Source: Candidatus Poseidoniales archaeon
GTDB taxonomy: Archaea > Thermoplasmatota > Poseidoniia > Poseidoniales > Thalassarchaeaceae
Assembly: GCA_003602515.1 (NCBI GenBank)
Contig: QQSB01000062.1
Coordinates: 927 to 61,320, forward strand
Direction of reading: 5' to 3'
Length of the DNA stretch: 60,394 nt
This document shows positions 3,701 to 32,670 of this stretch, piece after piece; positions within the stretch are counted from its first letter, which is position 1, and each line of letters starts with the position of its first letter. Made by a program: the position numbers and the translations under genes. Under the pieces are notes generated by a model. It made no database searches. It was not told the origin of the DNA and saw nothing but the letters and a program-made list of their open reading frames with translations.

Positions 3701-6700
3701 TTCCAAACGTGTCCTCTTACCCTAATTTCCTCTCCGGTGAAGACCTCGGGGACAATCTCGCATCGGACCTCGCTGGATGCTACCAGTGGATCGACCGGCC
3801 CGCATGGAGGAGAGTCGAAATCTGCTCCATTCTGCAGTGTAATGGTCCAATGGGTCCCATTGGCGGTCAGGAAGGGGGAAAGCGCCCCCGCAGCAATTCC
3901 CGAAAGCGCTTCCGGGGTCCCGTCCCAGAGGATTGGGTATGACTTCCCCAGGCTTGCATCCTCGAACGCGATTCCTGCGCTTGCTAGAGAGGGGGCATGG
4001 AAAAGCGCGCGCCAAGCGCCGAAGGACGAGCCGGTGAACTGGGTCGCATCCCAGAAGTATACGGGTCTGAACGAGGGTGCGAACATGTCTGCCTCGATGT
4101 ACATCCTATGCATTGCGCGAATGAAGAATGTGTCAGTCTTGGATTCCTCCAGATGAGCCCATGGCCACTCGTAGGAGCCATCAGAACAACTACCGAGATC
4201 TGGTCTGGCGTATCCTATGAAGCTGTAGTCTCCTACTGGGAGAGTGGTGTTCTTGTACTCATATGGAGATAGGACGGAATGGGATCCAACAGGGTTCAGA
4301 GGTGTGCATGGGTTCCAAACAATCTCCTCGTACCCACCTGTAGGTATTCCATCCCCGTTGTCAAGAAGGGAGTTCCACTGAACTTGCTCCCAAACATCCA
4401 ATGACTGGTTGTATGCAAGAGAAACCCAACCTCCTGAGTCAGCCCTGTACCCATTTCCATATCCATCGTACACTGTCGGTTCTGTGATGTTCCCGAACTG
4501 AGTTCCAGAGTCGCTGATGGTGAAGGAGACAGGCGCGAACGCTAGTCTGTTGTCGAAAATTCCCCTATTATAGTCCGCTGTGTAGTGGACCTTGAAGTCG
4601 AGTTTCAGAGGCTGCTCGTCAGCTCTGAATCTTTGTCCGGCGACGAACCCTATGGTGGTGTTAGCCCTGACTTCCACTGGGAATCCGGCGTCGCCGATTC
4701 CATCTCCGTCGGTATCCGACAGAGTCGAGCTGTAATCGTGGATGAACATCTCTGTGACTTCTGAGTATACCTCATAGGTCGAGTTCGGCCCTACGTCGAT
4801 GTCCTCTGGGAACAGGAATTGTCCTACGATGTACTCTCCATTGGCATTGGTCAGTACGTCTATCGTCTCGATTACCGAGGTCCCGTTCTCAGAGTATCTG
4901 ATGTGTACCTGCACTGGAAGGTCTGGAGCGGGGACGAATCCAGTATCGTCAAGCCAGAAAACCGAGCCGTTGAATATCGCCGGTGTTGTCTCGTCCAACC
5001 ACAGAACTGGTTGAGTGTTCAGAGTGATCCTAGTGGGTATCTTGTCATCATTATCAAGGACGCCATCGTTATCGGAATCCCAATCGGAACTCAATCCAGA
5101 GGCCTCCTCGATCTTGTTTGCCGGAGTTGGCCAATCTCCTGAGGAGGGGTTGTTCCAATCGGCGTCTTCCCTGCCGTCATTGTCGTCATCTACATCGAAG
5201 TAGTCTGGTCCTGTTGAGTTGTTCGTTGGATTGGCTAGGCCGACCCCTCCTCCGAAATCGTCGTGATCCCATGGGTTCGTAGATTGCACTCCGAACCTCG
5301 AGGGCCAAAGCATCACTTCGTCTTCGTCCTTCATGCCGTCGTAGTCGTCGTCGTCATCCAAGTCATCCCTAATGCCATCGTTGTCGTGATCCCATGGTGC
5401 TATCGGGAAGTTCAGGCAGCAGGTGTCATCAATTGGATCGGCCGTACCATTCGTGTCGTTTAGGTTCTGGAGCTCTAGTGAGTTGGGGATTCCATCTCCA
5501 TCCCAATCGTCGTCAGCCCAATTCAAAATCCCGTCGTTGTCGTGGTCCCAAGGACTCTGCTCCTCACCCGTGAAGCATCCTGGGAAAGCCTCCTGGGTTT
5601 CATCCAGCAAACCATTGTTGTCATCGTCTGGATCCTCTCCATCGGGTACTCCATCGTTATCGTTATCCACGTCATAGTACTGGGGGAATAGGAGTGATTG
5701 GCCTAGGACCCCGCGATCCCATACAGCCTGGTAAATCCCATCATCATCCGGGTCGGTGTCTAGCCCGTCGTCGTCGTTATCCTCGCAGTTGCTACCAGTG
5801 AAGTAGTATGGCTCCTCCACGGTAGCGTCGTCATCGAGATCGTCGTTGCTGTCTACTTCGAAATAGTCCCAAATTCCATCATTGTCGTCGTCCACGTCAA
5901 AGTGATCGTAGACTATGTCCCAGTCATCATCGAGATCGTTTGTGTTGTTGTACATACAATTCGGAGTCCAAGAAACCTCGGGCATAGGTTGACCACAGTC
6001 GATGTCTGGGTCGACATCATCGTTCAACTCATCAGCAATCTCGTCTGGAAAGAAGTTGCCATTGTTATCGGAAGTCCATTGGAAGAATTGGAATTGAGTG
6101 ACGCCGAGGTATGCTATCCAGAGGTCTCTGTTGTGCTTCATGTCTACATAAGTGTAGGCGACTGATGGTGAAGGGTTACTGGTTGGGTCGAAAGTGAACC
6201 AGAAGCAGTTCATGTCACAGCTTCCCAACCCAGTTGGATGATTGGTGCCGTCATACGCTCCGTCATCCCAGTCGACATCTGGCCTTGAGCTATATGGGAC
6301 TGTGAAGGATTGGCCCCCTGACTGTGTTGGAGTCAGGAGGGGCGCCTTGAACGCGTATGCGTATATGTGTCCGCAGAATCTTTCTTGGGTGGCTGAGAGG
6401 ATTACTGTACCACAGGAGTTCCCGTCAAGCGTCCCCCCCATCTTGACGTCATCGACGTCCAGGATCCCGTCGTTCCCCTCGTCCTGGTCCCACCAGTCGG
6501 GCATTCCATCGCCATCTTGGTCCACATCGATTCCATTGACCAACGAGTCTCCATCGTCATCGATGTCGAAGAAGTTGCCACCGTTGTAAGGGCTCCACTT
6601 CATCATCAGGAACCAGTACATCTCGGGGATGATGCCACTGATTGTGTCTAGTGAGGTCGGGTCATACCCGTTGTAGTCCAGCATGAAGCTGTTATCCTCA

Positions 6701-8697
6701 TTGAACGGGTTGAACCCCCATGTGAGATTCCAGTAGTAATTGGGGACTGCCGCATATGCACCGCTGTCCTCGGAGCCGTCGATAGCGTCCCCGTCGCTCT
6801 GTGGCCAGCTATTACCATAGAAGTTGTCTGTGTTGTCGGTGTCGACCACCCCGCAGTTTCCATCATCGGGATCGTAGTAGTCATTGATTCCGTCATTGTC
6901 GTCATCCCAGTCTTCATCATTCGCCAGTCCATCTCCATCCACGTCGGTATCGATGTCGTTTGTTCCGTCGTCTCTGTACTTCGATCCGTTTAGTTCGTGG
7001 AGGTCGGCATCGTTGTCCAAGTCGCAGTCGGGGTCGATGTCGAGCCAGTCGAGGATCCCGTCCCCGTCGTCGTCCATGTCCACCCAATTGTTCAGCCCGT
7101 CTCCATCCCAGTCATTGAATCCGGTGTAGGAGGTTCGCCATAGCACGCATTTGTCGCTGGGGTTCTGTGGGTTCGGGTTGGAGACGCTAGCGCAGTCCCA
7201 AGTGGCAACCTCTGCCGATGAGTTGAGTGGGTAAGGGTCGTATTCGTTTTCCAGGCCGTCGTCATCTAGGTCCCATGGTTGCGAACCGCCCATCAAATTG
7301 TCAGGGTTATCGGATCCACCCATGTCGGTATCTAGCCAGTCCCACACCATGTCGTAGTCGGCATCAATGGACCTGAACCTGTCATCGTCTAGGTCCCCGT
7401 CATAGTCTATTTCGCAATCGATCCCAGGGGTCTGGATATCGACAACAGAGCCGTTGAAGACTTCGGTTGGGTAATCTCTCTGTCCGTCCCCGTTGGTGTC
7501 CAGTTGTATGCATGAGTCTGGGATTCCGTCATTGTCGTCATCGACGTCGTACATGTCTGCAAGGCCGTCATTGTCATCATCAGTATCTGACGAGTCAGGG
7601 GAGCCATCATTGTCGTTGTCTGGATCGAGGAAGTTTGGAATTCCGTCTCCGTCGAGGTCACCATCGACGATTTCTGTGAATGCCTGCTGTCTCGGGTGCT
7701 CGAGGGCGTGGAGAGCTACGTAGTCGAGGCCGTCCACGTATTCGGCGTAGTCCTCCGGGTCCCATCTCTCCCAGTCGTCCCAGAGAATGTCTGAGTCAGA
7801 GGTGATGAGCGCTGTCTGAGTAGAATCCCAAGGATGGATATCGTCTATGTCCAACACCTCATCGTTGTCATCATCCAGATCGAAGTAGTCCTGAATGCCA
7901 TCTGAGTCGAAGTCGCATGGCCAGACGAACTGGTCGATTCTACCGTCGTTGTCATCGTCCTCGTCGTATGATCCTCTTCCGGAGCCATCGATGTCTTCGT
8001 CGGTAATGCCATCGTTGTCGTGGTCCATTGGGTTCTGATCTACCAGGTAGTTGAATCCAACAGCCTGACCGGTCCAGGGATGAATAGTGGTGGGGTCCAC
8101 GTGACGATCCGAGGAGACGTTCCATGGGTCGTTTCCTTGGGAGTAGTCCACTGGTCCCTCAAGGATGCCGTCGTTGTCATCGTCCCAGTCGAACTCGTCT
8201 CGGATTCCATCGTTGTCGTGATCCAGTGGGTCTGTTCCGTAGCAACCATCGAATCGCTCTATCAGATCGTTGATCCCGTCGTTGTCATCATCCAGATCGT
8301 TCAAATCGTCAATGCCATCGTTGTCGTGATCCTCTGTGTTGGTCTCCTCTAAGAAGAAGCCATAGCTCGGATCGAGGGTCAACGCTGAGGTATCCGAGAC
8401 CTTCCCGTAAATAGCGGCTGGGTCATTATAGAATGGATCGTGGAATGCTGCCGCTTGGAACGGATTTGTGGCTGCGGGTTGACTTTGGCTTTCTCCCTGC
8501 ACTGGACCTCCAAGCTGCTCAAGTTGCTGGTAGGCCGTTCTCTTTGGTGTGTCATCGCTTCTCGTCCTCTCGGGAGAATCGTCCGAACTGGGCATGATCG
8601 AAAGCTGGGTACTAAGGAGCATCAGTGCGATAATCGAAATCGCTGGTATTATTCTCTTGTTTGTGTCTCTCTCTTTCTTGCTAGTCATGCAAATCAC
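787..8697 (-). CDS. Giant membrane-anchored surface protein: thrombospondin type-3-like Ca-binding repeats, Ig-like stalk, TM helix, C-terminal DUF4129-like domain
   Basis: N-terminal hydrophobic signal; dozens of DxDxDGxxD motifs in the first ~1230 aa; beta-rich repeats (LVDN..QPV..VPV, TDENGFF); TM helix VLVLAGISLSTATLVGAMMY; tail ETTREF...FFSIFEEARYS. Confidence 0.8.
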   Translation of the reverse strand: MICMTSKKERDTNKRIIPAISIIALMLLSTQLSIMPSSDDSPERTRSDDTPKRTAYQQLEQLGGPVQGESQSQPAATNPFQAAAFHDPFYNDPAAIYGKVSDTSALTLDPSYGFFLEETNTEDHDNDGIDDLNDLDDDNDGINDLIERFDGCYGTDPLDHDNDGIRDEFDWDDDNDGILEGPVDYSQGNDPWNVSSDRHVDPTTIHPWTGQAVGFNYLVDQNPMDHDNDGITDEDIDGSGRGSYDEDDDNDGRIDQFVWPCDFDSDGIQDYFDLDDDNDEVLDIDDIHPWDSTQTALITSDSDILWDDWERWDPEDYAEYVDGLDYVALHALEHPRQQAFTEIVDGDLDGDGIPNFLDPDNDNDGSPDSSDTDDDNDGLADMYDVDDDNDGIPDSCIQLDTNGDGQRDYPTEVFNGSVVDIQTPGIDCEIDYDGDLDDDRFRSIDADYDMVWDWLDTDMGGSDNPDNLMGGSQPWDLDDDGLENEYDPYPLNSSAEVATWDCASVSNPNPQNPSDKCVLWRTSYTGFNDWDGDGLNNWVDMDDDGDGILDWLDIDPDCDLDNDADLHELNGSKYRDDGTNDIDTDVDGDGLANDEDWDDDNDGINDYYDPDDGNCGVVDTDNTDNFYGNSWPQSDGDAIDGSEDSGAYAAVPNYYWNLTWGFNPFNEDNSFMLDYNGYDPTSLDTISGIIPEMYWFLMMKWSPYNGGNFFDIDDDGDSLVNGIDVDQDGDGMPDWWDQDEGNDGILDVDDVKMGGTLDGNSCGTVILSATQERFCGHIYAYAFKAPLLTPTQSGGQSFTVPYSSRPDVDWDDGAYDGTNHPTGLGSCDMNCFWFTFDPTSNPSPSVAYTYVDMKHNRDLWIAYLGVTQFQFFQWTSDNNGNFFPDEIADELNDDVDPDIDCGQPMPEVSWTPNCMYNNTNDLDDDWDIVYDHFDVDDDNDGIWDYFEVDSNDDLDDDATVEEPYYFTGSNCEDNDDDGLDTDPDDDGIYQAVWDRGVLGQSLLFPQYYDVDNDNDGVPDGEDPDDDNNGLLDETQEAFPGCFTGEEQSPWDHDNDGILNWADDDWDGDGIPNSLELQNLNDTNGTADPIDDTCCLNFPIAPWDHDNDGIRDDLDDDDDYDGMKDEDEVMLWPSRFGVQSTNPWDHDDFGGGVGLANPTNNSTGPDYFDVDDDNDGREDADWNNPSSGDWPTPANKIEEASGLSSDWDSDNDGVLDNDDKIPTRITLNTQPVLWLDETTPAIFNGSVFWLDDTGFVPAPDLPVQVHIRYSENGTSVIETIDVLTNANGEYIVGQFLFPEDIDVGPNSTYEVYSEVTEMFIHDYSSTLSDTDGDGIGDAGFPVEVRANTTIGFVAGQRFRADEQPLKLDFKVHYTADYNRGIFDNRLAFAPVSFTISDSGTQFGNITEPTVYDGYGNGYRADSGGWVSLAYNQSLDVWEQVQWNSLLDNGDGIPTGGYEEIVWNPCTPLNPVGSHSVLSPYEYKNTTLPVGDYSFIGYARPDLGSCSDGSYEWPWAHLEESKTDTFFIRAMHRMYIEADMFAPSFRPVYFWDATQFTGSSFGAWRALFHAPSLASAGIAFEDASLGKSYPILWDGTPEALSGIAAGALSPFLTANGTHWTITLQNGADFDSPPCGPVDPLVASSEVRCEIVPEVFTGEEIRVRGHVWNRTIEPAYSVNGRPITVALQFDFDQNGAFVGSIETQFNRPPEPEEGLATFDYDFAWASQYQAGTYGVRADFSQSDYFFTGDQDQVLAATGAYGNVSVIGTTGFSELNSLPQLYRGQNTSVQVRLVDNAYQPVREVPVNWTWSEDQSSGISITDNNGRFRVNLTDIENLGNYTLGFTYLGDERRQGSHAEVNLWVVSRTYINVQSTSPNIRSNGDLWEFTAVVTDDNRTPFEKDGGQVLNSCAGEMQSPGGNDLGGNVTVIFEGIDFEDRTHRQIVSVECPASGSIGYGQYLDPQLLKDDPFSFLPDGFGPVNVILRFEQNLPHEGCEPLDSGMLSTSGAWDPCVTVMNSDHYRKVLQFQVDGFSLIGNTELDVDQQIVYTSEIDPETGQILEKPMLVTGQLTDELGGNLSNRQIRVTFEMGSMIFDPIENRMKFRAGDTGIEACIPGATDENGFFDINCPLAGVDAGMAKVKVEYNSWDPLNNDRYRYKNKTQTMFFPVFSNSTIDVSEIGPFRSDYLTYTFPNGSTFDVLYLKEAFHINAKLSQSNGKPVGGKCVNIYLDPQVNTRPIATAFTSDGTGEFVWYSADPEDNPSRRGVEPSGNNLEGFRTVRVAYEPEKYVPGGCDYEALEPNPVLNSSIADIEVLVRSKVDILLKEHWSSPTGYQEGEIIAGEVAILRDRLDLTVEGQRVEFHRQFWNGSGWQTERVEIFITNERGSANFSFPYTGELIPGHPEWSAPGGKWRVLVHFESADANKPYFVEQWLNSTPEIKLGEPPSASSGGLWTTQVLVLAGISLSTATLVGAMMYNNYRERRKVEVLRGILTDALMSLKASNNYIEAIFSCYKDLIKYFRMRGAMKKVFETTREFEDVINNMLGGIVPPEELDMFFSIFEEARYSDHQIGSEERDRAIQIFQSMIGRMNSSLGDSLLNRASVAESSLYGPSVKAGQFVDAEGNVRFAGIDDAEEDDGFRI

Positions 8698-15031: not shown

Positions 15032-18000
15032 ATGCAGACGAAAATTAAGTCCTCAGGAGATGGCTCTGACGTAGAGAAGGGGTTAGTCGTTGAGCGTAGA
15101 TTCACGTCTGCAGACCAAGATCCATTCGAGTCATTCGACTGGATTGACATGGACGTCGAGATCAGGAATCCTGACGGTTCCATGGCTGACTCGATAGAGG
15201 GGGTGAAGTTGCCCTCGGGGTTCTCAGGAATCCCTGGGAAGGTTTGCGCTCAGAAGTATCTGCGCAAGGCAGGTGTTCCGAAGCACCTTCGAAACGTTCC
15301 TGAAGATGGAATTCCCATCTGGCTACAGCGAAGTGAGCCAGATCACGAGCGGTTGCAGTCAATCGATGCTGCTGAAAGAATGGGTGGTGAGACTGATGGA
15401 AGGCAACTCTTCCGTCGACTCGCAGGGACCTGGACCTACTGGGGCTGGAAGTACGGCTACTTCGCAAGCGAGGCAGATGCCCGTGCGTACTTCGATGAGA
15501 TGTGCTATCTGATTGCTAGTCAGAGATCAGCACCAAACAGCCCCCAGTGGTTCAACACAGGCCTACACTGGGCCTATGGAATTGAAGGTCCGCCACAGGG
15601 TCACAGTTTTGTCGATCCGGAGACGGGTGAAGTCGGGCTATCCACTAGCGCATACGAGCATCCCCAACCCCATGCTTGCTTCATTCAGTCCGTCTCAGAT
15701 TCTCTCGTCGGCGGTACTGATTCAATAATGGGACTTTGGAATCGTGAGGCACTTCTTTTCAAGTATGGTTCTGGGACCGGTTCTAACTTCTCCAACATCA
15801 GGGGGGCAGGTGAACCACTCTCCGGCGGCGGTACCTCGAGTGGTTTGCTGTCATTCCTAAAGATAGGGGACAGGGCTGCAGGCGCGATAAAATCGGGTGG
15901 AACTACAAGAAGAGCTGCGAAGATGGTTACCTTGGACCTAGATCATCCCGACATCGAAGAGTACATCGATTGGAAGCCAACGGAGGAGGAGAAGGTTTCC
16001 GCCCTGGTAATCGGTAGTGCAATTCTGCAAAAGCATGCAGATTCGATAATGGAGTCAATTTGGTCATTTGGGGATGACGAAGGCAGATTCAGCCAAAAAA
16101 CAAACCCTGGACTGAAGAAGGCGATGGTCCGTGCCATAAACGATAGTGTTCCACAGGCTCATATTCAGAGAATACTAGACCTAGCCGAGCAGGGCTGGAA
16201 GGGTTTGGAGTTTGATTCCCTAGACACGGACTGGCAGGGAGAGGCCTATGCCACTGTTTCAGGGCAGAACAGCAACAACTCAGTTAGGGTCCCCAACTCA
16301 TTCATGGATGCGGTAAAGTCTGGTGGAGAATGGAGCCTCTACTTCAGAACAGAGAGAGAGGCTGCAGCAGATGAGGATAGGGACCCAATGCCCTACAAGA
16401 CTCTGGATGCGGGAGCATTGTGGGATAAGGTCGCATACACAGCCTGGGCGTGTGCCGATCCTGGCGTCCAATTCGACACTACGATCAACGAATGGCACAC
16501 GTGTCCAGAGGCTGGGAAAATCAACGGATCAAATCCCTGTTCGGAATACATGTTCTTGGATGACACTGCGTGCAATCTGGCCAGCATCAACCTTCTTCAC
16601 TACTACGATCTAGACACTCACAAGTTTCAGATCGAGGACTTCAAGCACAGCGTCAGACTCTGGACCACTACGCTGGAGATTAGCGTCCTCATGGCACAGT
16701 TCCCATCTGAGTCGATTGCAAAGGGGTCATATGACTACAGGACGCTTGGTCTTGGATACTGCAATATCGGATCGCTACTGATGCACATGGGGATCCCCTA
16801 TGATGATGAGCGGGCTTACGCCATTTGTGGAGCGTTGACCTCGATAATGTGTGGCGAGAGCTACGCCACTAGCGCGGAGATGGCATCCGTACTCGGGCCA
16901 TTCCCCGACTACGAGAGGAATGCGGAGCACATGCTCAAGGTAATGCGCAACCACAGGAGGGCCGCATACGATGCACCCGAGTCTGAGTACGAGGGCCTGA
17001 CGGTCCCACCAATGGGGATCAATTCGAAGAAGTGTCCCAAGGATCTCTTAGACGCAGCCAGGAGCTGCTGGGACCGGGCCCTGATGGATGGCGAGGAGTA
17101 TGGGTTCAGGAACGCCCAGACCACTGTGATAGCTCCGACTGGGACAATAGGACTGGTGATGGGTGCAGACACCACAGGTGTAGAGCCCCAGTTCTCGCTC
17201 GTACAGTACAAGACGCTCGCCGGTGGAGGATCTCTGAGAATCATCAACCACGGAGTCCCCAATGCCCTTAGCAGGCTAGGTTATTCTGAGAGCGATGCTC
17301 TCGCTATTGAGGAGTATATCATGGGAACCAAGAGGCTTGGTGACTGTCCTAGTATGCCTATTCAGAGATTGAAGGAAGCCGGATTCGATGACGCTCTTCT
17401 CACATCGATCGAAGGGAAGCTAGGGGACGTCTTCGACTTGAGGTCTGCCTTCGCCCCATCCATCCTTGGCGAGGAGTTCTGCGTAGGAAAGCTCGGAATG
17501 ACGAAGGCCCAATTTGGAGACTCGTTCTTCGATACCCTAGGATTCATCGGACTCAGCGGACAGGAGATTGACTCTGCGAATGACCACATCTTCGGATACA
17601 ACACGATAGAGGGGGCACCGGGTCTGAAGGACGAGCACCTCGCTGTTTTCGACTGTGCGACCCCCTGCGGTAAGTACGGTAAGAGATCGATCGCCTGGGA
17701 TGCGCATGTCAAGATGATGGCAGCGGCCCAGCCCTTCATCTCCGGAGCGATCTCGAAGACCATCAACATGCCTTCTGATGCTTCGATAGAGGACGTTAGG
17801 GAAGCCTACAACCTCAGTCACGCCACTATGAACAAGGCCTGTGCTGTTTACAGAGACGGTAGCAAGCTGTCACAGCCGCTGATGAGCCAACTAGTTGACT
17901 CAATGGATCTTGAGGAAGGGGAAGGGGAAGAGTCAGTCGTTGAGAAGATGGTGCAGGAGGCCGCCAGTGCCCTACCTCTACCGGAGCCAGTGGCCATGCC

Positions 18001-18667
18001 AGTCGCAAAGGCGCTTGTCGAGAACTATATCGCCTCCAAGAGGCCTCTCCCACACAGGAAGAGGGGAGCGAACTTCAAGGCTAGAGTAGGTGGTCACAGC
18101 GTACGTCTTATCACCGGGGAATACGAAGACGGGAAGCTCGGTGAGATCTTCCTGCTGACCTCAAAGGAAGGCGCCGCTTGGAGGGCGCTCCTGTCTCAGT
18201 TCGCGATCGCGGTGTCAATCGGGTTGCAGCACGGGGTACCCATAGATGCCTTCGTGAAGTCATTCACCTTCACTAAGTTCGAGCCCAGCGGGATGATAGA
18301 GGGTGGCAGCGGACGAGTGAAGATGTCCTCGAGCATCATCGACTGGGTCTTCCGCGAGCTAGCGATCGAGTATGCTGGCAGGAACGATCTTGCTCATGTC
18401 CCTCTGGAGGAAGAAGATCTGGACCCGTTCTCAATCAGCAGGCCCGAGGTGACCGAGCAGGGACTGGCCCGCAGCCAGGGCGAGAGACGAGAGGTCCAGA
18501 TGACCTTAGAGGCCGCTGTTGGTGATGTGGATTCGAGGACGAGGCAGGCTGCGAAGGAGAGGGGCTTCACTGGGGACATCTGTGACGATTGTGGCGGTAG
18601 TCAGATGGTCAGGAACGGGACTTGCCTCAAGTGCAACGAATGTGGCTCCACCACTGGCTGCTCTTGA
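15032..18667 (+). CDS. nrdJ: Adenosylcobalamin-dependent (class II) ribonucleotide reductase
   Basis: PNSPQWFN, HACFIQSV, SNPCSEY thiyl Cys, IAPTGTI, GAISKTIN, C-terminal zinc ribbon and TTGCS. Confidence 0.96.
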   Translation: MQTKIKSSGDGSDVEKGLVVERRFTSADQDPFESFDWIDMDVEIRNPDGSMADSIEGVKLPSGFSGIPGKVCAQKYLRKAGVPKHLRNVPEDGIPIWLQRSEPDHERLQSIDAAERMGGETDGRQLFRRLAGTWTYWGWKYGYFASEADARAYFDEMCYLIASQRSAPNSPQWFNTGLHWAYGIEGPPQGHSFVDPETGEVGLSTSAYEHPQPHACFIQSVSDSLVGGTDSIMGLWNREALLFKYGSGTGSNFSNIRGAGEPLSGGGTSSGLLSFLKIGDRAAGAIKSGGTTRRAAKMVTLDLDHPDIEEYIDWKPTEEEKVSALVIGSAILQKHADSIMESIWSFGDDEGRFSQKTNPGLKKAMVRAINDSVPQAHIQRILDLAEQGWKGLEFDSLDTDWQGEAYATVSGQNSNNSVRVPNSFMDAVKSGGEWSLYFRTEREAAADEDRDPMPYKTLDAGALWDKVAYTAWACADPGVQFDTTINEWHTCPEAGKINGSNPCSEYMFLDDTACNLASINLLHYYDLDTHKFQIEDFKHSVRLWTTTLEISVLMAQFPSESIAKGSYDYRTLGLGYCNIGSLLMHMGIPYDDERAYAICGALTSIMCGESYATSAEMASVLGPFPDYERNAEHMLKVMRNHRRAAYDAPESEYEGLTVPPMGINSKKCPKDLLDAARSCWDRALMDGEEYGFRNAQTTVIAPTGTIGLVMGADTTGVEPQFSLVQYKTLAGGGSLRIINHGVPNALSRLGYSESDALAIEEYIMGTKRLGDCPSMPIQRLKEAGFDDALLTSIEGKLGDVFDLRSAFAPSILGEEFCVGKLGMTKAQFGDSFFDTLGFIGLSGQEIDSANDHIFGYNTIEGAPGLKDEHLAVFDCATPCGKYGKRSIAWDAHVKMMAAAQPFISGAISKTINMPSDASIEDVREAYNLSHATMNKACAVYRDGSKLSQPLMSQLVDSMDLEEGEGEESVVEKMVQEAASALPLPEPVAMPVAKALVENYIASKRPLPHRKRGANFKARVGGHSVRLITGEYEDGKLGEIFLLTSKEGAAWRALLSQFAIAVSIGLQHGVPIDAFVKSFTFTKFEPSGMIEGGSGRVKMSSSIIDWVFRELAIEYAGRNDLAHVPLEEEDLDPFSISRPEVTEQGLARSQGERREVQMTLEAAVGDVDSRTRQAAKERGFTGDICDDCGGSQMVRNGTCLKCNECGSTTGCS

Positions 18668-26697: not shown

Positions 26698-29600
26698 TCA
26701 GAAGACGATGTCGTCGTCGTCAGACCCGGGGAGAAGGCTGCTCAGTTCAGAGAACCTTGCTAGGGCCTCCACTCTTCTGCCCCAAATGACGTAGCCTGCA
26801 ACTCCGAAGAGGGAGAAGGTTGCTCCGATGATTATTGTTGGGACTGCATACCTGACGACTAGTTCCCTTCCGACATCGAGTGATCCCAAAGGCGATTTCA
26901 TGTTCCCAATCCTCTCGATGTTGTTGTTCTCATCGGTCTCTACGATGTTGTTATCCGGGTCCACTACCACCACAATGTCGTGATTCCCTGGCTCGACCAT
27001 GTACAGCAGGGTAATTGGATCAGACAAGTCGGTATCCGACTGGCCGATGGGCATGATGGCATTGACAATCTGCCTGTACACGATATTCTCTTCTTTGCAT
27101 CCGTTCCTCTTGATGTCCGACTCTGACTGGTCCTTGCACAGGATTATGTTAACATCGGTGGCATGGGCGTTACCCCTGTTTGTGATGAAAACGTTGATCG
27201 AGAGCATTTCCCCGATAGCGGCCTCCTTTACTGGAGCAACTACGCTCTCAAGGACTAGGTCTGGGGCTCTAAGTCTCATCTCGAGAATCTGTTCGTTGGT
27301 ATCGCAATCCGGAGGGAGGTTGTCTGGGATACCATCTGAATTGCTATCCATAGTACAGGAGTCAGTCCAAACTTCTGTCTCATCGAAGTCCCCGCCTTGG
27401 TCGGAGGACCCATGCATAGATAGCGTCTTGATTCCCAAGTTTCTATCAGTCAGTGAAGCGTCAGGGGCGACTGTGACGATTACCACCAGCTGCAGCGTAG
27501 TGTACGGTTGCATCATTGGGAGAGTTACTGTGTTAGCAGCAGTAACATAGCAGTAATCCGGACCTTCCCCCTGTGACAACTGTTGAGTTATTTGGTTCTC
27601 TTCTTCCACGGTAAGTTCCACACATGGCTTCTCCAATGGAAATTCGGTACCGAATCCTTCCAGTAGGGCGTAATCGATTTCCCAGGTACTCAGGGAACCA
27701 AGGCCTGGTCTTACTGACCAGGCAGTTGTTACATCGTCATAGGTGTGGTTGTGTATCGTCGGTTGGTCCTCGACATTACCGAAATTGGATACGTTCAGTG
27801 TGTATCTGACGATTCTACTTGGAGCAGTTGTCTTAATCTTGCTCTCAACCGTTGGATCCAGCGAGATTTGCATATCATGGAATTCTATTATAGTGGCTCT
27901 AATTACTATCTGGTCTTGGACCTTAGTTCCCTCACACGGGTCCTCGGTGCATGGGAATGGCTCCTCGCTCAGTACGTTGAACGTGATTGTGTACTCTCCT
28001 GCTAGAGTCTGCACAGGGACATTGATGAAAATTGGGACCGTCTGAGCCTCATCCCTATTCAATTCCTCGAACAGTATCCTGGGGATATCCATATCCCATA
28101 CATGTGCCCCGCCTTGGCTATCTACAATTGACTCAATGGTGATATCGTACCTGTCCTGACCATTCCCCAGATTGGAAACTGTTGTGTTCATCTGATATGA
28201 TTGTCCTGGGTAAAGGTCGACGATAGTGTCTGGGACACTCGACTCGAGTTCGTACCTCTGGACCACATTCGTCAGAATCAGGACGGAGTCTCGTACCTTT
28301 GGAGTGCCGTCCAGATGAGCTCGTACGGTGATTGATTCCCCTATCCCTGCGGTTGCATTGAATGGGGAGCACATCTCTGCACTGACGGTGTAGGTGGTTC
28401 CGACCTGGGCCCAGTAAATGTCCTGATCTGATGAGGATGGGCTGCCTGGCCACTCAGAGAAGTCCAGGTCTACTGTCCAATGATCGAATCTCCAGGAGTT
28501 GAGGTCAGCATCTGCAGGCCTTTCCATCGGGGCGCCCGGAGTTGTGAACACGATGTGCCCAGGAGTGAAGTATTTGTTCACTTGAATTGGGAAACTAGCG
28601 CATTCTCCCGGTAGAACGTACAACTTCGTATCGCCGATATCGAAGACAATGTTCCCTGTGGTCCTGATTGAGACATTTATCCACAGTTCTAGAACGTCAA
28701 ACGTCCCTCTATCGACAGATAAGACCGGTTCACCTGTGGACCAGCCCTTCAGATAGATTGCGAATGTTCCTGGGTCCTGGGTCTCGGGGACACTGACCTT
28801 GAGATTTCTAGTCACGGACTGTCCGGGATCAAGGGAAATACGGAGCGGGAAGTCTATTCCCCATCCGAATGGCAATGCCCACTCATTCTGACCCTCCAAA
28901 GTAGCTGGGTCGTAGAATGCGAATGTGTCATACACGTTTCCGGTGTTCTTGATTGAGATCGAGAATACAGCTGACTTGCCTTGCTCGACGTCTACTTGGA
29001 AGTGGCTAGTATCTAGTTCGATTCCATGAACTACATCCATCAAAGTCAGAAGGGTGAGTTTGTTTCGAATTGCAGGATCCTTTGCAGAAGTCGCAATTAT
29101 GCTTATTTGAGCCAATTCGTCGTCCTTAGCTTGGTAAATCGTCGGAGTTCTGACTCGCAGATATAGTGGATCGATGGCTCCGCCATCTAGGAAAACAGGA
29201 GTGGAGTCAAATATCGGGGTATTATTGGTCATGTAGAAAAGAGTGGCTGTCCAATTATTTGGAATCCCCTCCATGGTTACAGTGAACGTGTCCCTAACCA
29301 GCTCGGCCGGCCCAGGAGTCGGGTTCGCGATTGTGATGTTGAAGGTTGTAAGTTCGCCGGGTTGGATAGTGTGGTAGAACGTCTCAGCGTCTGTGGGACA
29401 TTCGTATGGGTACCCCTCTATGTTTGCATTTGTTTTGATTTTGTCATCACAGGCTAGCGACAGATCGACCAGCCCGGTGAGTACGTGAACATAGCATAGA
29501 GTCCACTTGTTTGCATTGGAGCCCTCCCAGTCGCATCTCTTGTCGGACCAGCCAATGTGCGCACCGCTACCGAGATCATTTGCAAACGCAGGAGGCATGC

Positions 29601-31968
29601 CCCTGTCGAGATTGAAATCTGGGAATAGGTGGTGTCCGTCAGCAGTATTGCATTCTGGCTGACACATCGCTGGACCGAGTTTGTCAGAGGTCCAATTTGT
29701 GACTTCCCTGACCTCCCATGGATCAAGAATTGCCGATGCTGCTGAGTTTAACGGGAATCCTTGCGGATACTTTTCGTTAGTATGGTTCAGTCGGGCATAC
29801 ATGATTGTCTCCTGCCACTCTGTAAAACTATAGTCGATCCAAGAAAGATGGACGTTGTCGAATGAATCTGTCAGGATTTGCGGGGCTACCGAGCTAGGTG
29901 CAAATGGGTATTCCTCGGACGCACCCTCGCATTGCTCGGGGGTCGAAATTGCACTCGAAGCAATCTGTTTTATTCCATAGGCAGGAAGTCCTTCTGGGAC
30001 CCCGTCCCACTCTGCTGCCCCTCTTAATCGGAGTCTGGTATAGTATATCTCGTAGGCTCCCTCGATGTCGATTCCCCCTGTGGCACCTTCGCAACCTGGG
30101 TACAGTCTACCGTCCTGCCAAGCTAGGTGCGTGTTGCCCGAGTTATCGAGTGCAATGGAGGGGTGGAGGCTATATGCTGGGTTGTTGGTAATCTGGGTGT
30201 CATTCACGACTACCAAATGCCCGTATCCCTGCTCGTCTTCCGAGGGTCCTAGATCTTCGACGTAGTACCCATTCTGGTTTGCCTCGGTCCCGGGGTCTCC
30301 TCTGCTCCAGCCAGGCCACGGGTTCTCCAGCAGGGAGTGAGGGTCTAGGATTGACATGTAGATCTCACGTGAGTTGTTCGTAGCTAGGTAAACCATGGCC
30401 TCGACCATGATCTCTAGTTCTGAAGAAGAGCCGGCGGTGGTTGGGAACTGATACATCTGCCCCTCAGCAGTGGTGGTTCGAGTAGTTGCACCGTTGCATG
30501 TTCTGGTATTGAGTCCCGAACCCACAGGGCACTGTGCCATATCCAGCATGTAGCTACCAACAGCCGTATCAGAACCAGCCCAGAGCGGGTAAGGCTTGGT
30601 CTGGGCCAAAACACATGCGTCATGTGCCTGATTGATGCTCGATGTGTCGTCGTTGTCCATTGGGGTTCCACCATATGGGCCCTCGTCGGAAATCGGTATT
30701 ACCACTCGAGTGGCATTGTCATTCCAACGATGGTCAAGGGTGGTAGGGGGGTTTGCTGCTAGTCCTTGTCTGCCCTGAATGTCTCTGTATGAGAGGCATG
30801 CCCAGGTAGCCGCTGGGCCCCAGAACTCGCTGTAGTAACCTCCATCGGCTGGGAGGTTAGTAGCCTGATTGTTGTAGACGACCTCTGTCAGCTCCCTGAT
30901 TCCACCCGAGGAGTCTCCCGGGCCTAGTGGGGTGTTTCTGGGGCCTTGGCTTCCAGAGCCCCCTGTCTGATAGGCATCTGCACAGTTTCCGCTTGTTGCA
31001 GCAGCCGGCCAATTGCCACTCAGCGCATAGAGTGTCTCATACACGCTCATGTTCGCGCTGACAAGCATTGGTTTCAGACCTATGAAATACCCTCCACTGG
31101 CGAAGTTTCCTCCGTAGAATACTGCACACATGTCTGCCCATTCTGCGTTCATCGAACCCGAGGTGTCTATTGGGACGACCATCTCAACTTGTCCGCCTCT
31201 GGTGTCGTCCCAGACAATCTGTACGAAGTCGTTGATGTCGACAGCTATGTCTGGATGGCCCTTCTGGCCAAGAATAGGAGTCAGCAGCGTACTGTCAATC
31301 TCAACAATAACCACTCGAGCTACTTGGTCTACTGATAGCATCTTGTAGTAGATCTGTGACTGCTGGTAGTACAGCTCCAGCGGCTCGAATGAGTCCTCCC
31401 ATACGATATGGGGATTATTCTCTGAGTCTACGTCAATGGCTGGCCAATCCCGATTCTGTGGATTATTTGCTACTTCGAAGTCGTTTGGTACTACGGACAG
31501 AGTTGAATCTAGTGATGCGTCTCCGTTCTGATCGTCCAGCGATGGGTCGAGAAGGGTGTACATGATCTTGTACTGCCCTGCCCTATCAGTCCAAACAACG
31601 TGAACCATGTCATCACTGTCAACAGTGACGTCTGGATGCCAAGCCCGGTGTGCTCCCGGGTCAGAAATTTGGGTCTCAGAGATCAGAGTTTCTCCTCTTG
31701 GGTCTAGCATCTTGTAATACAGGTGGTTTGTGTTCCGGCTCCAGACAACATGCACGTTTCCTTCTGAGTCGGCATCCATGGCCATCATCCTGTCGTTGTG
31801 AACGCCGCTCTGAACAACTTCTATTGGATCTGTGACGACAATGTCACTGGCACTGGCAGGAGCCGAGAATGAGGCTAGGAGGCTGAGCAGCATCAGCATG
31901 ACAATGGTCGCGCCACTCCTCTTGCTCGAAATTCCTTCCTTTTCGAAGGAACGGACGTACTGCATCAT
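26698..31968 (-). CDS. Large surface protein: 7 propeller-type repeats, inserted vWA/MIDAS domain, COG1470/CARDB Ig-like stalk, C-terminal TM helix
   Basis: Signal peptide; seven PxIxxDxxxxHxxW repeats; DTSGSM and ISDEG MIDAS residues; repeated I.N.GN..D domains; CARDB end (PDLV...VVVDPDNNIVETDENNN); TM anchor. Confidence 0.8.
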   Translation of the reverse strand: MMQYVRSFEKEGISSKRSGATIVMLMLLSLLASFSAPASASDIVVTDPIEVVQSGVHNDRMMAMDADSEGNVHVVWSRNTNHLYYKMLDPRGETLISETQISDPGAHRAWHPDVTVDSDDMVHVVWTDRAGQYKIMYTLLDPSLDDQNGDASLDSTLSVVPNDFEVANNPQNRDWPAIDVDSENNPHIVWEDSFEPLELYYQQSQIYYKMLSVDQVARVVIVEIDSTLLTPILGQKGHPDIAVDINDFVQIVWDDTRGGQVEMVVPIDTSGSMNAEWADMCAVFYGGNFASGGYFIGLKPMLVSANMSVYETLYALSGNWPAAATSGNCADAYQTGGSGSQGPRNTPLGPGDSSGGIRELTEVVYNNQATNLPADGGYYSEFWGPAATWACLSYRDIQGRQGLAANPPTTLDHRWNDNATRVVIPISDEGPYGGTPMDNDDTSSINQAHDACVLAQTKPYPLWAGSDTAVGSYMLDMAQCPVGSGLNTRTCNGATTRTTTAEGQMYQFPTTAGSSSELEIMVEAMVYLATNNSREIYMSILDPHSLLENPWPGWSRGDPGTEANQNGYYVEDLGPSEDEQGYGHLVVVNDTQITNNPAYSLHPSIALDNSGNTHLAWQDGRLYPGCEGATGGIDIEGAYEIYYTRLRLRGAAEWDGVPEGLPAYGIKQIASSAISTPEQCEGASEEYPFAPSSVAPQILTDSFDNVHLSWIDYSFTEWQETIMYARLNHTNEKYPQGFPLNSAASAILDPWEVREVTNWTSDKLGPAMCQPECNTADGHHLFPDFNLDRGMPPAFANDLGSGAHIGWSDKRCDWEGSNANKWTLCYVHVLTGLVDLSLACDDKIKTNANIEGYPYECPTDAETFYHTIQPGELTTFNITIANPTPGPAELVRDTFTVTMEGIPNNWTATLFYMTNNTPIFDSTPVFLDGGAIDPLYLRVRTPTIYQAKDDELAQISIIATSAKDPAIRNKLTLLTLMDVVHGIELDTSHFQVDVEQGKSAVFSISIKNTGNVYDTFAFYDPATLEGQNEWALPFGWGIDFPLRISLDPGQSVTRNLKVSVPETQDPGTFAIYLKGWSTGEPVLSVDRGTFDVLELWINVSIRTTGNIVFDIGDTKLYVLPGECASFPIQVNKYFTPGHIVFTTPGAPMERPADADLNSWRFDHWTVDLDFSEWPGSPSSSDQDIYWAQVGTTYTVSAEMCSPFNATAGIGESITVRAHLDGTPKVRDSVLILTNVVQRYELESSVPDTIVDLYPGQSYQMNTTVSNLGNGQDRYDITIESIVDSQGGAHVWDMDIPRILFEELNRDEAQTVPIFINVPVQTLAGEYTITFNVLSEEPFPCTEDPCEGTKVQDQIVIRATIIEFHDMQISLDPTVESKIKTTAPSRIVRYTLNVSNFGNVEDQPTIHNHTYDDVTTAWSVRPGLGSLSTWEIDYALLEGFGTEFPLEKPCVELTVEEENQITQQLSQGEGPDYCYVTAANTVTLPMMQPYTTLQLVVIVTVAPDASLTDRNLGIKTLSMHGSSDQGGDFDETEVWTDSCTMDSNSDGIPDNLPPDCDTNEQILEMRLRAPDLVLESVVAPVKEAAIGEMLSINVFITNRGNAHATDVNIILCKDQSESDIKRNGCKEENIVYRQIVNAIMPIGQSDTDLSDPITLLYMVEPGNHDIVVVVDPDNNIVETDENNNIERIGNMKSPLGSLDVGRELVVRYAVPTIIIGATFSLFGVAGYVIWGRRVEALARFSELSSLLPGSDDDDIVF

Positions 31969-32043: not shown

Positions 32044-32670
32044 TTACGCCCATTCCAGAGGGTCGAAGTCCTTTCCAAAGCCGCCAGTCTCGTCTGTATC
32101 GATTTCAGATTGCCTGGTTTGGGACTGTCTCGATGCTCGACCGGATTTCTTCCCTTCCCAATCGTCAACTGGTCCTGGCTTGCCCTTTCCGTTTCCGAAC
32201 CCGTACTTGATTTGGTGGATCAATGAGAGCTTCGTCAACCAGACCTTTCTCATGCTTTGCATGAATTCATTCTGTGTAAGTCCGTCTAGCCAAACTGGCC
32301 TTGAAAGATTGAATGCCTGCAGAGGCCCGGCCACTCCATCTTTGCTTTTACCAACATGGAGAACCCAATCAAGATCTGAAGAAGTCATTCTGATTCTGGT
32401 TTCATGGAGCCATTCCTCCCAATCCTCTGAGACCTCGTTTGCCATTTCTCGCATTGATTCCTGCTGTCCTTCGTCTACTCTTGTGATAGAATAGACCAAT
32501 ACCAGATTCCTGTTCTTTGGGATTACGATATTGAAAAGATGGCCCTGTTTTGTGGGGGGGTATCGAACGTGGAGGTGGATTATCGCTTGGGGATCTTTGA
32601 CCTCTCTGGCTTCTAGCCTCTCTCCTTCCAACCATGATCGGATTGAGTCGGCCGCCTCGCTGTGGTTCAC
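32044..32670 (-). CDS. DUF2299-like family protein
   Basis: IRSWL..E, FNIVIPK, W.DGLTQNEFM..MRKV pattern. Confidence 0.6.
   Translation of the reverse strand: MNHSEAADSIRSWLEGERLEAREVKDPQAIIHLHVRYPPTKQGHLFNIVIPKNRNLVLVYSITRVDEGQQESMREMANEVSEDWEEWLHETRIRMTSSDLDWVLHVGKSKDGVAGPLQAFNLSRPVWLDGLTQNEFMQSMRKVWLTKLSLIHQIKYGFGNGKGKPGPVDDWEGKKSGRASRQSQTRQSEIDTDETGGFGKDFDPLEWA

Follow-up and report, generated by a model that had tools for sequence, protein, structure and literature searches.

Introduction

The closest described counterparts of the protein considered here are the integrin α chains that carry an I domain. In these a von Willebrand factor A (vWA) domain, the I domain, is placed between blades 2 and 3 in a propeller of FG-GAP/Cage repeats and takes up ligand through its MIDAS (metal ion-dependent adhesion site), as described in PMC3192720. 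According to PMC12422189, collagen vWFA domains gave rise to the I domains of integrins in chordates, and the Glu of an I/LEGT motif after helix 7 serves as an internal ligand that engages the β subunit. Here we describe a gene with a comparable order of parts from a Poseidoniales (Marine Group II) archaeon. It was found in a stretch of 60,394 nucleotides from contig QQSB01000062.1 (hereafter the window), where positions 26698..31968 of the minus strand form one continuous open reading frame (ORF) of 1756 codons with its stop codon at 26698–26700.

Among the planktonic archaea of the surface ocean, Poseidoniales are the most abundant, and they are uncultured (PMC6461757). That paper treats adhesion by way of flagella, thrombospondin and flotillin, and the words “integrin” and “propeller” are absent from its main text. 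A literature search with subscription journals outside its scope, on vWA, CARDB and adhesion in Marine Group II/Poseidoniales and on archaeal propeller–vWA–integrin combinations, found no paper describing the protein.

From its translation, the product is predicted to be a secreted, membrane-anchored cell-surface protein of 1756 residues with type I topology. Sequence comparison and structure models together make it very probable that it consists of a seven-bladed propeller head with a vWA domain nested in blade 4, a stalk of immunoglobulin (Ig)-like domains, a single transmembrane helix and a short tail. An integrin-like layout of this kind had been proposed in an initial annotation made from the sequence alone, and the motifs quoted there were all recovered at the positions given below.

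Propeller head and split fourth blade

Seven repeat cores had been read from the translation, and each is located in it: NVHVVW (aa 71–76), MVHVVW (aa 121–126), NPHIVW (aa 185–190) and FVQIVW (aa 248–253) before the insert, and NTHLAW (aa 612–617), NVHLSW (aa 705–710) and GAHIGW (aa 802–807) after it. The blade repeat has the consensus PxIAxDxxGNxH[IV]xW ... EIYYxxLD ... LIxDTxLT and is widespread in prokaryotes. A blade hidden Markov model (HMM), built from relatives of the protein, placed blade 1 at aa 57–91 (E 3.2e-15), blade 2 at aa 106–145 (E 1.1e-22), blade 3 at aa 170–207 (E 5.2e-16), blade 5 at aa 600–646 (E 3.5e-12), blade 6 at aa 693–728 (E 1.5e-7) and blade 7 at aa 793–815 (E 0.006). 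Blade 4 was found in two parts, its first half (HMM positions 6–26) at aa 238–258 (E 3.5e-9) and its second half (HMM positions 25–37) at aa 531–543 (E 0.02). These repeats are beyond chance: with an earlier HMM made from three seeds, blade 4 scored 11.1 bits against a best of 4.3 bits in 50 shuffles. On the minus strand of the window, an N-terminal strand (aa 44–50), blades 1–3 and the A and B strands of blade 4 (together aa 41–259) take up 31192..31848, and strands C and D of blade 4 with blades 5–7 (aa 531–840), which include long low-confidence loops, take up 29449..30378.

With ...QIVWDDTRGG on one side and NNSREIYM... on the other, the junction of the insert separates the H[IV]xW strand from the EIYY strand of one and the same repeat. 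Resumption of the repeat after the insert, also claimed in the initial annotation, is seen in EIYMSILDP (aa 535–543), which matches HLYYKMLDP (aa 82–90) and KIMYTLLDP (aa 134–142) of the first two repeats. When a profile of the head was aligned by hhalign to 32 propeller-only relatives, the top alignments scored 313 and 270 with the insert kept; with the insert columns dropped, a single colinear alignment of 348 columns was obtained (score 416, 100%, E 3.3e-56). Among single-propeller relatives (328–620 aa), seven blade hits were counted in 16 proteins, six in 14, five in 6 and three in 1, and more than seven in none. The mature N-terminus reads VVxTDAIQVV, with V44 and T46 invariant, and resembles the fourth strand of a blade; it probably closes the ring, which would then count seven D strands and as many A-B-C sets.

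The head (aa 40–880) was modeled with AlphaFold2 from a 41-row alignment (model residue + 39 = protein residue), with a mean predicted local distance difference test score (pLDDT) of 73.7 and a predicted template modeling score (pTM) of 0.76. Blades 1–4 and the vWA domain mostly reached pLDDT 80–95, and the strands of blades 5–7 were well predicted. DSSP assigned seven sets of four strands, each xxHxxW core being the second strand of its set. In model numbering, the strands are 20–27/33–39/43–49/55–61 for blade 1, 70–77/83–89/95–101/125–129 for blade 2, 135–141/147–153/166–175/180–190 for blade 3 and 195–204/210–218 for strands A and B of blade 4 (pLDDT mostly 82–96), and those after the insert run 495–502, 547–553, 560–568 ... 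784–791. The chain passes from strand B of blade 4 (aa 249–257) into the first strand of the vWA domain (aa 260–267) and leaves its last helix (aa 512–530) for strand C of blade 4 (aa 534–541).

Models were superposed with VIA-align, independently of Foldseek, on 48,161 representative chains of the PDB. The C-terminal domain of CylK (7ron_A) gave the best match of the head (Z 32.0, root mean square deviation (rmsd) 2.7, 349 aligned), and CIAO1 (6tbl_E, Z 29.9), YncE (3vgz_A, Z 29.7) and virginiamycin B lyase (2z2n_A, Z 28.5) aligned over 316 of 334, 305 of 321 and 293 of 293 residues. We take these four to be seven-bladed propellers. The superpositions span the insert, from model residues 1–7 to about 794. 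The initial annotation had named three findings that would overturn the proposed layout, namely a model without a closed propeller, a vWA domain outside it and a DTSGS region that forms no Rossmann/vWA fold, and none of them was made: with Z up to 32.0 the model of the head fits whole propellers of seven blades, and the hhalign junction, the split HMM match and the model all place the vWA domain inside the propeller, between strands B and C of blade 4. Other seven-bladed propellers (7ron, 6tbl_E, 3ow8_A, 3vgz_A, the PLL lectins and BT3686, 5muk) superpose as a whole with Z 24–32 and rmsd 2.3–3.6, but they share 6–13% identity with the head and have no domain nested in blade 4; the likeness is one of fold only.

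Matches of the protein to propeller-repeat families stay below their cut-offs, with 17.9–21.5 bits for BNR_4 (PF15892; cut-off 27.3) and 42.3 bits for PDIAV_lipo (cut-off 90), and 4 of 18 relatives scanned pass BNR_4 (P0168 with 50.6, P0180 with 35.8, P0187 with 32.4 and P0179 with 29.0 bits). The Asp-box motif is S-x-D-x-G-x-T-W, and we rejected an Asp-box identity of the repeat on reading the sequence, as the D-to-G and G-to-W spacings do not fit. A “RIVW” repeat of archaeal surface proteins is described in PMC2447325; we claim no relation of it to the blade repeat.

The nested vWA domain and its relatives

The insert is a divergent vWA domain at aa 260–530 (30379..31191, minus strand), the excursion from the propeller in the head model and the range, about 31190–30380, given to the vWA domain in the initial annotation. 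It comprises about 270 residues, about 100 of which form extra loops, and holds six near-invariant Cys (281, 329, 391, 452, 480 and 491), which are probably paired and would make it rich in disulfides. The quoted motifs DTSGSM and PISDEG lie at aa 268–273 (31167–31150) and aa 425–430 (30696–30679). A separate model of the insert with short flanks (aa 250–545, 56-row alignment) reached a mean pLDDT of 88.7 and a pTM of 0.87. All of its top 50 entries in VIA-align are vWA folds (Z 9.4–12.0, covering model residues from about 9 to 283), and 84 of the 48,161 chains reached Z ≥ 8, so that the DTSGS region does adopt a vWA fold in the model, as had been supposed.

The best superposition is on BatB (3ibs_A, Z 12.0, rmsd 3.3, 161 aligned), one of several stand-alone vWA domains among the matches, with VWF A1 (7eow_A, Z 11.9), CMG2 (9doc_A, Z 11.8) and collagen VI/VII (Z 10.9–11.3). 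Over 161–173 residues (rmsd 3.3–4.1) they have in common with the insert the DxSxS motif and the Asp after the central strand, but they measure about 180–200 residues and pass Pfam VWA, whereas the insert measures about 270 and does not. The pilus-tip vWA adhesins PilB (minor pilin, 7b7p_A, Z 11.1), Mfa5 (6tnj_A, Z 10.6) and SpaC (6m48_A, Z 10.4) likewise display a MIDAS-bearing vWA domain at the surface for adhesion; theirs is borne on pili, whereas the one described here is nested in a propeller on a membrane-anchored stalk. PilY1 combines a vWA domain and a propeller in tandem. Integrin domains also match, both the αM I domain (7p2d_A, Z 10.7) and β3 (9lt3_B, Z 10.5). In Foldseek, an integrin β-I domain came first (7y1t_B, E 4.5e-4, probability 0.96, TM-score 0.33) among five matches at E ≤ 0.001, and PTMP1, collagen VII vWFA2 and VWF A3 were further top matches. 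The TM-scores are low because of the extra loops.

Sequence relatives were sought with a profile of the insert in 151 genomes of the phylum, which gave matches in 27: in every genome sampled from the two large Poseidoniales families (9/9 and 15/15), in the genome of the window itself and, as partial matches, in 2 of 8 genomes of one family outside the order. The other 117 genomes sampled gave no match to the insert profile. The matches outside the order (L044, L045) are compact vWA domains of about 190 residues in Ig-rich archaeal surface proteins and are the closest sequence relatives of the insert beyond Poseidoniales; unlike it, they have no extra loops and are not nested in a propeller. 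Private motifs common to both are DTSGSM..EW..C, ESWG and IPISDEcpYxG..DD..I.EA..C. One of the compact domains reaches 23.2 bits for Pfam VWA (cut-off 23.8) and the other matches VWA, VWA_2 and VWA_4 weakly, and a relative at 82% identity has a precomputed PF00092 label. Their genes are a plus-strand ORF for a protein of 760 residues (L044, 21–2303) and a minus-strand ORF (L045), and one of the proteins has a DUF7311-like hydrophobic N-terminus (weak, E 0.064). A 360-residue protein considered as a stand-alone version of the insert (P0213) was set aside, as it reads as a frameshift-ridden fragment with Arg-rich ends.

In hhalign, a profile of the insert from 140 sequences aligned to the compact relative with 99.7% (E 2.6e-26, 170 columns), and the compact relative aligned over its full length to a canonical VWA profile with 97.4% (E 1.4e-11, 162 columns). 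The canonical profile was made from 18 of 24 archaeal VWA loci returned (chosen from L011–L032), near-identical ones being omitted. By way of the compact relative, the insert is homologous to canonical VWA at the profile level. The order of elements agrees when insert and canonical profile are aligned directly, with VPIDTSGSM on fVlDxSGSM and VVIPISDEG on iiVlLTDG, and both halves of the propeller, used as a control, score 0.2% against the VWA profile. A search for PF00092 itself gave hits in 0 of 21 related genomes and, across the phylum, in 68 of 121. Language-model features of aa 255–535 reach only 0.82–0.88 for VWA clusters, which we treat as a lead and not as evidence.

The putative metal site

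The candidate site residues are carried by three segments of the minus strand. The DxSxS motif (D268-T-S270-G-S272; 31153..31167) is conserved, and its counterpart by alignment in canonical VWA domains of archaea is DxSGS. S427-D428-E429 (30682..30690) stand at the end of the central strand (VVIPISDEG; strand 171–174 of the insert model) and align to the Asp of the vWA “LTDG”. E381 (in SEFWGP; 30826..30828) shares its alignment column with the canonical MIDAS Thr and is a candidate for a fourth site residue. A Glu takes part in the MIDAS of integrin β-I domains, and E381 may play a similar part. In 140 aligned inserts, D268 is kept in 133, S270 in 131, S272 in 134, E381 in 136 and D428 in 134; W383 is found in all 140 and the six Cys in 138–140. 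Protein-wide, identity to the query peaks at aa 241–360 (0.72–0.81), over the junction of blade 4 with the vWA domain and the metal site.

The site residues are near-invariant in the orthologue group and eroded in accessory paralogues. Of 16 representatives of divergent clusters, 10 keep all site residues and 6 are altered. Four of these (P0132, P0134, P0138 and P0140) have lost D268, E381 and D428 together and kept all six Cys and W383, a joint loss that speaks for these residues acting as one unit. The remaining two are P0147, from which S270, S272 and D428 are gone, and P0124, whose DxSxS motif is lost. A tree of 35 rows groups P0134, P0138 and P0140 in a single clade (100/99) and places P0124 as sister to the intact P0122 (98/96); as these are two separate supported clades, erosion of the metal site happened at least twice.

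Stalk, membrane anchor and tail

The head is followed by a stalk of about 860 residues made up of β-sandwich (Ig-like) modules (aa 841–1700; 26869..29448, minus strand), recognized by Pfam and hhalign. The CARDB Ig-like domains predicted for this part are represented by a membrane-proximal CARDB match well above the Pfam cut-off (PF07705, aa 1569–1684, 26917..27264, E 7e-15, 55.5 bits, cut-off 22.7). NPCBM_assoc also passes its cut-off (27.5 vs 24.4 bits, aa 1031–1071), and a choice_anch_T match at aa 1183–1336 stays below its own. The best-conserved stalk module is aa 960–1100, within a conservation peak at aa 961–1120; it resembles aa 1221–1360 (hhalign 94.8%), and language-model features of aa 945–1125 reach 0.95–0.97 for NPCBM_assoc/FixG_C/Ig_VWA7 clusters.

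Hydropathy scans delimit both ends of the protein. The signal peptide region (aa 1–40; 31849..31968), with a hydrophobic core at aa 18–41 and ...SAPASA followed by SD, is weakly conserved (0.24 identity, vs 0.5–0.8 in the rest of the protein). At the other end, the one transmembrane helix and short acidic tail that had been foreseen are present: a helix at aa 1703–1730 (26779..26862), aligned in homologues, and a cytoplasmic tail of 26 residues (aa 1731–1756; 26701..26778) that terminates in DDDDIVF. The tail motif RRxEAxxRxxExSS[LMI] is kept order-wide, as seen when the C-termini of every third of the 41 aligned homologues (14 rows) are compared. The tail of the divergent representative P0147 is more than 100 residues long.

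Distribution and genomic context

The insert was found in 80 of 81 Poseidoniales genomes, in 52 of the 53 of high quality and in all 19 genera, mostly in open frames of about 1700 codons. Homologues are named Poseidoniales or Thalassarchaeaceae wherever the source gives a name. Some genomes of the family to which the window belongs yield two to four insert matches, which may be extra copies; in the genome of the window (76% complete), the gene is the only one that matches the propeller, insert or compact-vWA profiles. The protein is under purifying selection across the order.

The surrounding region (about 20 kb, window 17000–42000) holds genes for an RFC-like protein, a 512-residue membrane protein, an FAD enzyme, a HIT protein, an acyltransferase, a DUF2299 protein and the surface protein, and on the other flank a convergent ArsR-type regulator, topoisomerase VI A/B and aconitase. 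Of 6 loci compared, 5 (L035, L036, L038, L039 and L040, from the two large families) have this gene order, and it differs in a third family. TFIIB, topoisomerase VI A and B and the RFC-like ATPase are archaeal neighbors in the window. The DUF2299 gene (32044–32670, minus strand) lies directly upstream on the same strand after a gap of 75 nt; its product is cytoplasmic by hydropathy and similar to the uncharacterized PDB entry 3cxj_A (E 1.7e-7).

RNA contigs of four libraries from four studies partly cover the gene and its neighbors at similar low depth, and such contigs cannot rank genes. In codon usage the gene lies at the 40th percentile of the first principal component, which tracks GC content at third positions (r −0.95), and at the 87th of the second; with no highly expressed genes as a reference set, these positions are uninformative. 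A promoter and terminator scan returned 10 promoter-like sites, against 5.7 ± 1.9 expected, with a bacterial consensus that does not apply to archaea, and an Rfam scan returned only two tRNAs.

Giant proteins are common in this genome of 1.36 Mb, which has at least 15 ORFs of more than 1600 codons, most with signal-peptide-like starts. One lies in the window (787–8697, minus strand; 2636 aa) and has an N-terminal hydrophobic segment and a sub-threshold Big_1 match. Further giant proteins are encoded outside the window (C45:76020–85946, C61:1200–9809, C45:95948–104905 and C37:14977–22281). Those present in 41 of 41 genomes are a protein of 3309 residues with an STT3/AglB-like domain, a PorZ/Reg_prop-type propeller protein of 2870 residues and a TSP3-repeat protein of 2986 residues that is 56–60% identical even in the other family; a DUF7151 protein of 2435 residues is found in 35 of 41 and one more giant secreted protein in 25 of 41. 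The window also encodes a class II ribonucleotide reductase (15032–18667, plus strand; 1211 aa), whose barrel is matched in two stretches, with a TSCPD domain, and whose length would leave room for an insertion, for example an intein.

Functional interpretation

For vWA domains it is established that a cation in the MIDAS binds an acidic group of the ligand (PMC3192720 and PMC12422189). By this precedent, the nested domain would hold a divalent cation, Mg2+ or Ca2+, both of which are abundant in seawater, at a MIDAS-type site predicted to be formed by D268, S270, S272, D428 and probably E381, and the acidic group of an external ligand would complete the open coordination position. The head would then be a metal-dependent binding module that the stalk keeps away from the membrane. 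Its ligand is likely to be conserved and could be a protein or acidic polymer of particles or phytoplankton, or else a partner on the surface of the same cell. We favor this reading of the propeller–vWA head as a metal-dependent module for adhesion or reception, although with its inferred function included it is only somewhat better than an even proposition. It draws indirect support from how nearly invariant the site residues are and from the way they have been lost jointly in paralogues.

Several points weigh against it. Neither Pfam nor NCBIfam calls VWA in the protein, no Pfam family of the VWA clan matches at E ≤ 10 in the isolated insert or in 10 orthologous inserts, and no PDB entry was matched by the insert in sequence or profile searches. 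Compared directly, the insert and canonical VWA profiles align with only 84% (E 7.4e-6). The canonical MIDAS Thr appears unidentifiable in the sequence, and the case for E381 in its place is drawn from a low-confidence stretch of the alignment and from its loss together with the other residues. In the head model, loops of blades 5–7 fall below pLDDT 50 (584–597, 611–626, 692–708 and 721–750, model numbering), and blade 7 is weak by HMM. Finally, more variation would be expected in an adhesin that meets varied particles than is seen in this protein, which shows high conservation, a single copy in its genome and synteny with housekeeping genes. These features also fit a structural or self-recognition role.

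Such a role is the substance of the first alternative, in which the protein would be a structural component of the envelope, as an S-layer-like canopy or through cell–cell or self-association, with the vWA metal bridging neighboring copies or an envelope partner. Presence in 80 of 81 genomes, a single copy in the genome of the window, high conservation and a stable housekeeping neighborhood speak for it, and so does the typical build of euryarchaeal S-layer proteins, in which Ig-like arrays are anchored in the membrane at the C-terminus. No paper on the envelope of these uncultured archaea was found in the literature searched on the S-layer of Poseidoniales/Marine Group II, which included part of PMC11706807. 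Universality, however, is not distinctive: three other giant proteins occur in 41 of 41 genomes and a fourth in 35 of 41, and we rejected universality as a pointer to an S-layer role on finding other giant secreted proteins equally universal. N-glycosylation sequons number 14, against about 14 expected from composition, and we know of no S-layer protein with a propeller-plus-vWA head. On balance we think an envelope role unlikely.

A second alternative takes the propeller as the working part, a glycan-binding lectin or a polysaccharide-acting enzyme, with the vWA domain in an accessory or regulatory role. Its support comes from fold neighbors of the head, among them the fucose-binding PLL/PHL lectins (Z 25–26), glycoside hydrolase BT3686 (5muk, Z 24.0), the putative neuraminidase 4irt (Z 22.5), rhamnose-glucuronate lyase 7esk_A (Z 22.2) and, among the Foldseek matches, ulvan lyase 5uas_A, and from repeat relatives that pass Pfam BNR_4, one of them with a GH43 match. 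The fit of unrelated WD40 and CylK propellers is equal or better, however (Z 27–32), and the fold match therefore carries no functional signal. No catalytic family scores above threshold in the protein, conservation peaks over the blade-4/vWA junction and the metal site, and it is specifically the metal site that paralogues erode, all of which makes this alternative improbable.

Within the favored reading of a metal-dependent binding module, we also considered an analogue of integrin signaling. The last vWA helix leads straight on, over a short and invariant linker, to strand C of blade 4. Ligand capture might move this helix, and the change might be relayed along the stalk to the RRxEAxxRxxExSS[LMI] motif of the tail, as in an outside-in or inside-out receptor. 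We regard this as a long shot.

Comparison with integrins

The likeness to I-domain integrin α chains lies in a propeller with a looped-out vWA domain bearing DxSxS, Ig-like legs, one transmembrane helix and a short tail. Integrin I domains match the insert (7p2d_A, Z 10.7; 5e6r_A, Z 9.8; 8zjf_A, Z 9.8), and Foldseek of the whole head returned I-domain integrins first (5e6s_E with E 1.1e-7, then 9p97_A, 5e6u_A and 5e6s_A; 7p2d_A at rank 15), but with TM-scores of only 0.18–0.22 and rmsd 18–22. The rigid-body fit covers the propeller only (5e6s_A, Z 23.9, 345 aligned; 4nen_A, Z 23.0) and ranks below those to CylK, WD40 proteins and PLL lectins (Z 25–32).

The blades differ in kind, those of integrin α being FG-GAP/Cage and those described here not, with no match to FG-GAP (PF01839) at E ≤ 1 in the protein. 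The insertion falls inside blade 4, where it separates strands B and C; PMC3192720 places that of integrins between blades 2 and 3. After the last vWA helix there is no I/LEGT but ...LATNNSREIY, whose Glu is part of the generic EIYY repeat. The vWA domain has about 100 extra residues and six Cys, and the legs are of CARDB/NPCBM_assoc type. With blades of another kind than FG-GAP and another site of insertion, the resemblance is one of convergence and not of homology; the initial annotation, which had called it probably convergent, holds up here, the more so as the integrin propeller fits no better than unrelated ones. The only FG-GAP match in the genome (24.9 bits; contig C37:35353–35415) is in a separate giant protein of 1881 residues.

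Integrin β-I domains (7y1t_B, 9p95_B, 6djp_B and 9lt3_B) match the insert best in Foldseek (E 4.5e-4 to 9e-4, probability 0.96–0.99) and are, like it, vWA folds enlarged by loop insertions, but TM-scores are 0.33–0.40 at 10–12% identity, and there is no hybrid-domain context here. The protein is not known to pair with a β subunit. Integrin_beta (PF00362) has no match in the genome of the window (76% complete), and control genomes are equally without one. True kinship with integrin α, through common ancestry of a propeller-plus-I-domain head, could appeal to the order of parts and the Foldseek ranking, but is already contradicted and next to impossible, given the poor superposition, the different blades and insertion site, the chordate collagen origin that PMC12422189 gives for integrin I domains, and the closer relatives of the vWA domain in archaeal surface proteins.

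Significance

The protein is a candidate, concrete and order-wide, for the contact of Poseidoniales with particles, phytoplankton or each other, and D268, S270, S272, E381 and D428 give it a defined candidate site for study. It also offers a clean case of convergent evolution, in which a vWA domain is nested in a stalked seven-bladed propeller with unrelated blades and at another insertion point. Such nesting was thought, from the accounts of integrins in PMC3192720 and PMC12422189, to be a chordate invention, and was reached independently here. If the signaling reading were true, these uncultured archaea would have an adhesion receptor that evolved independently of eukaryotes.

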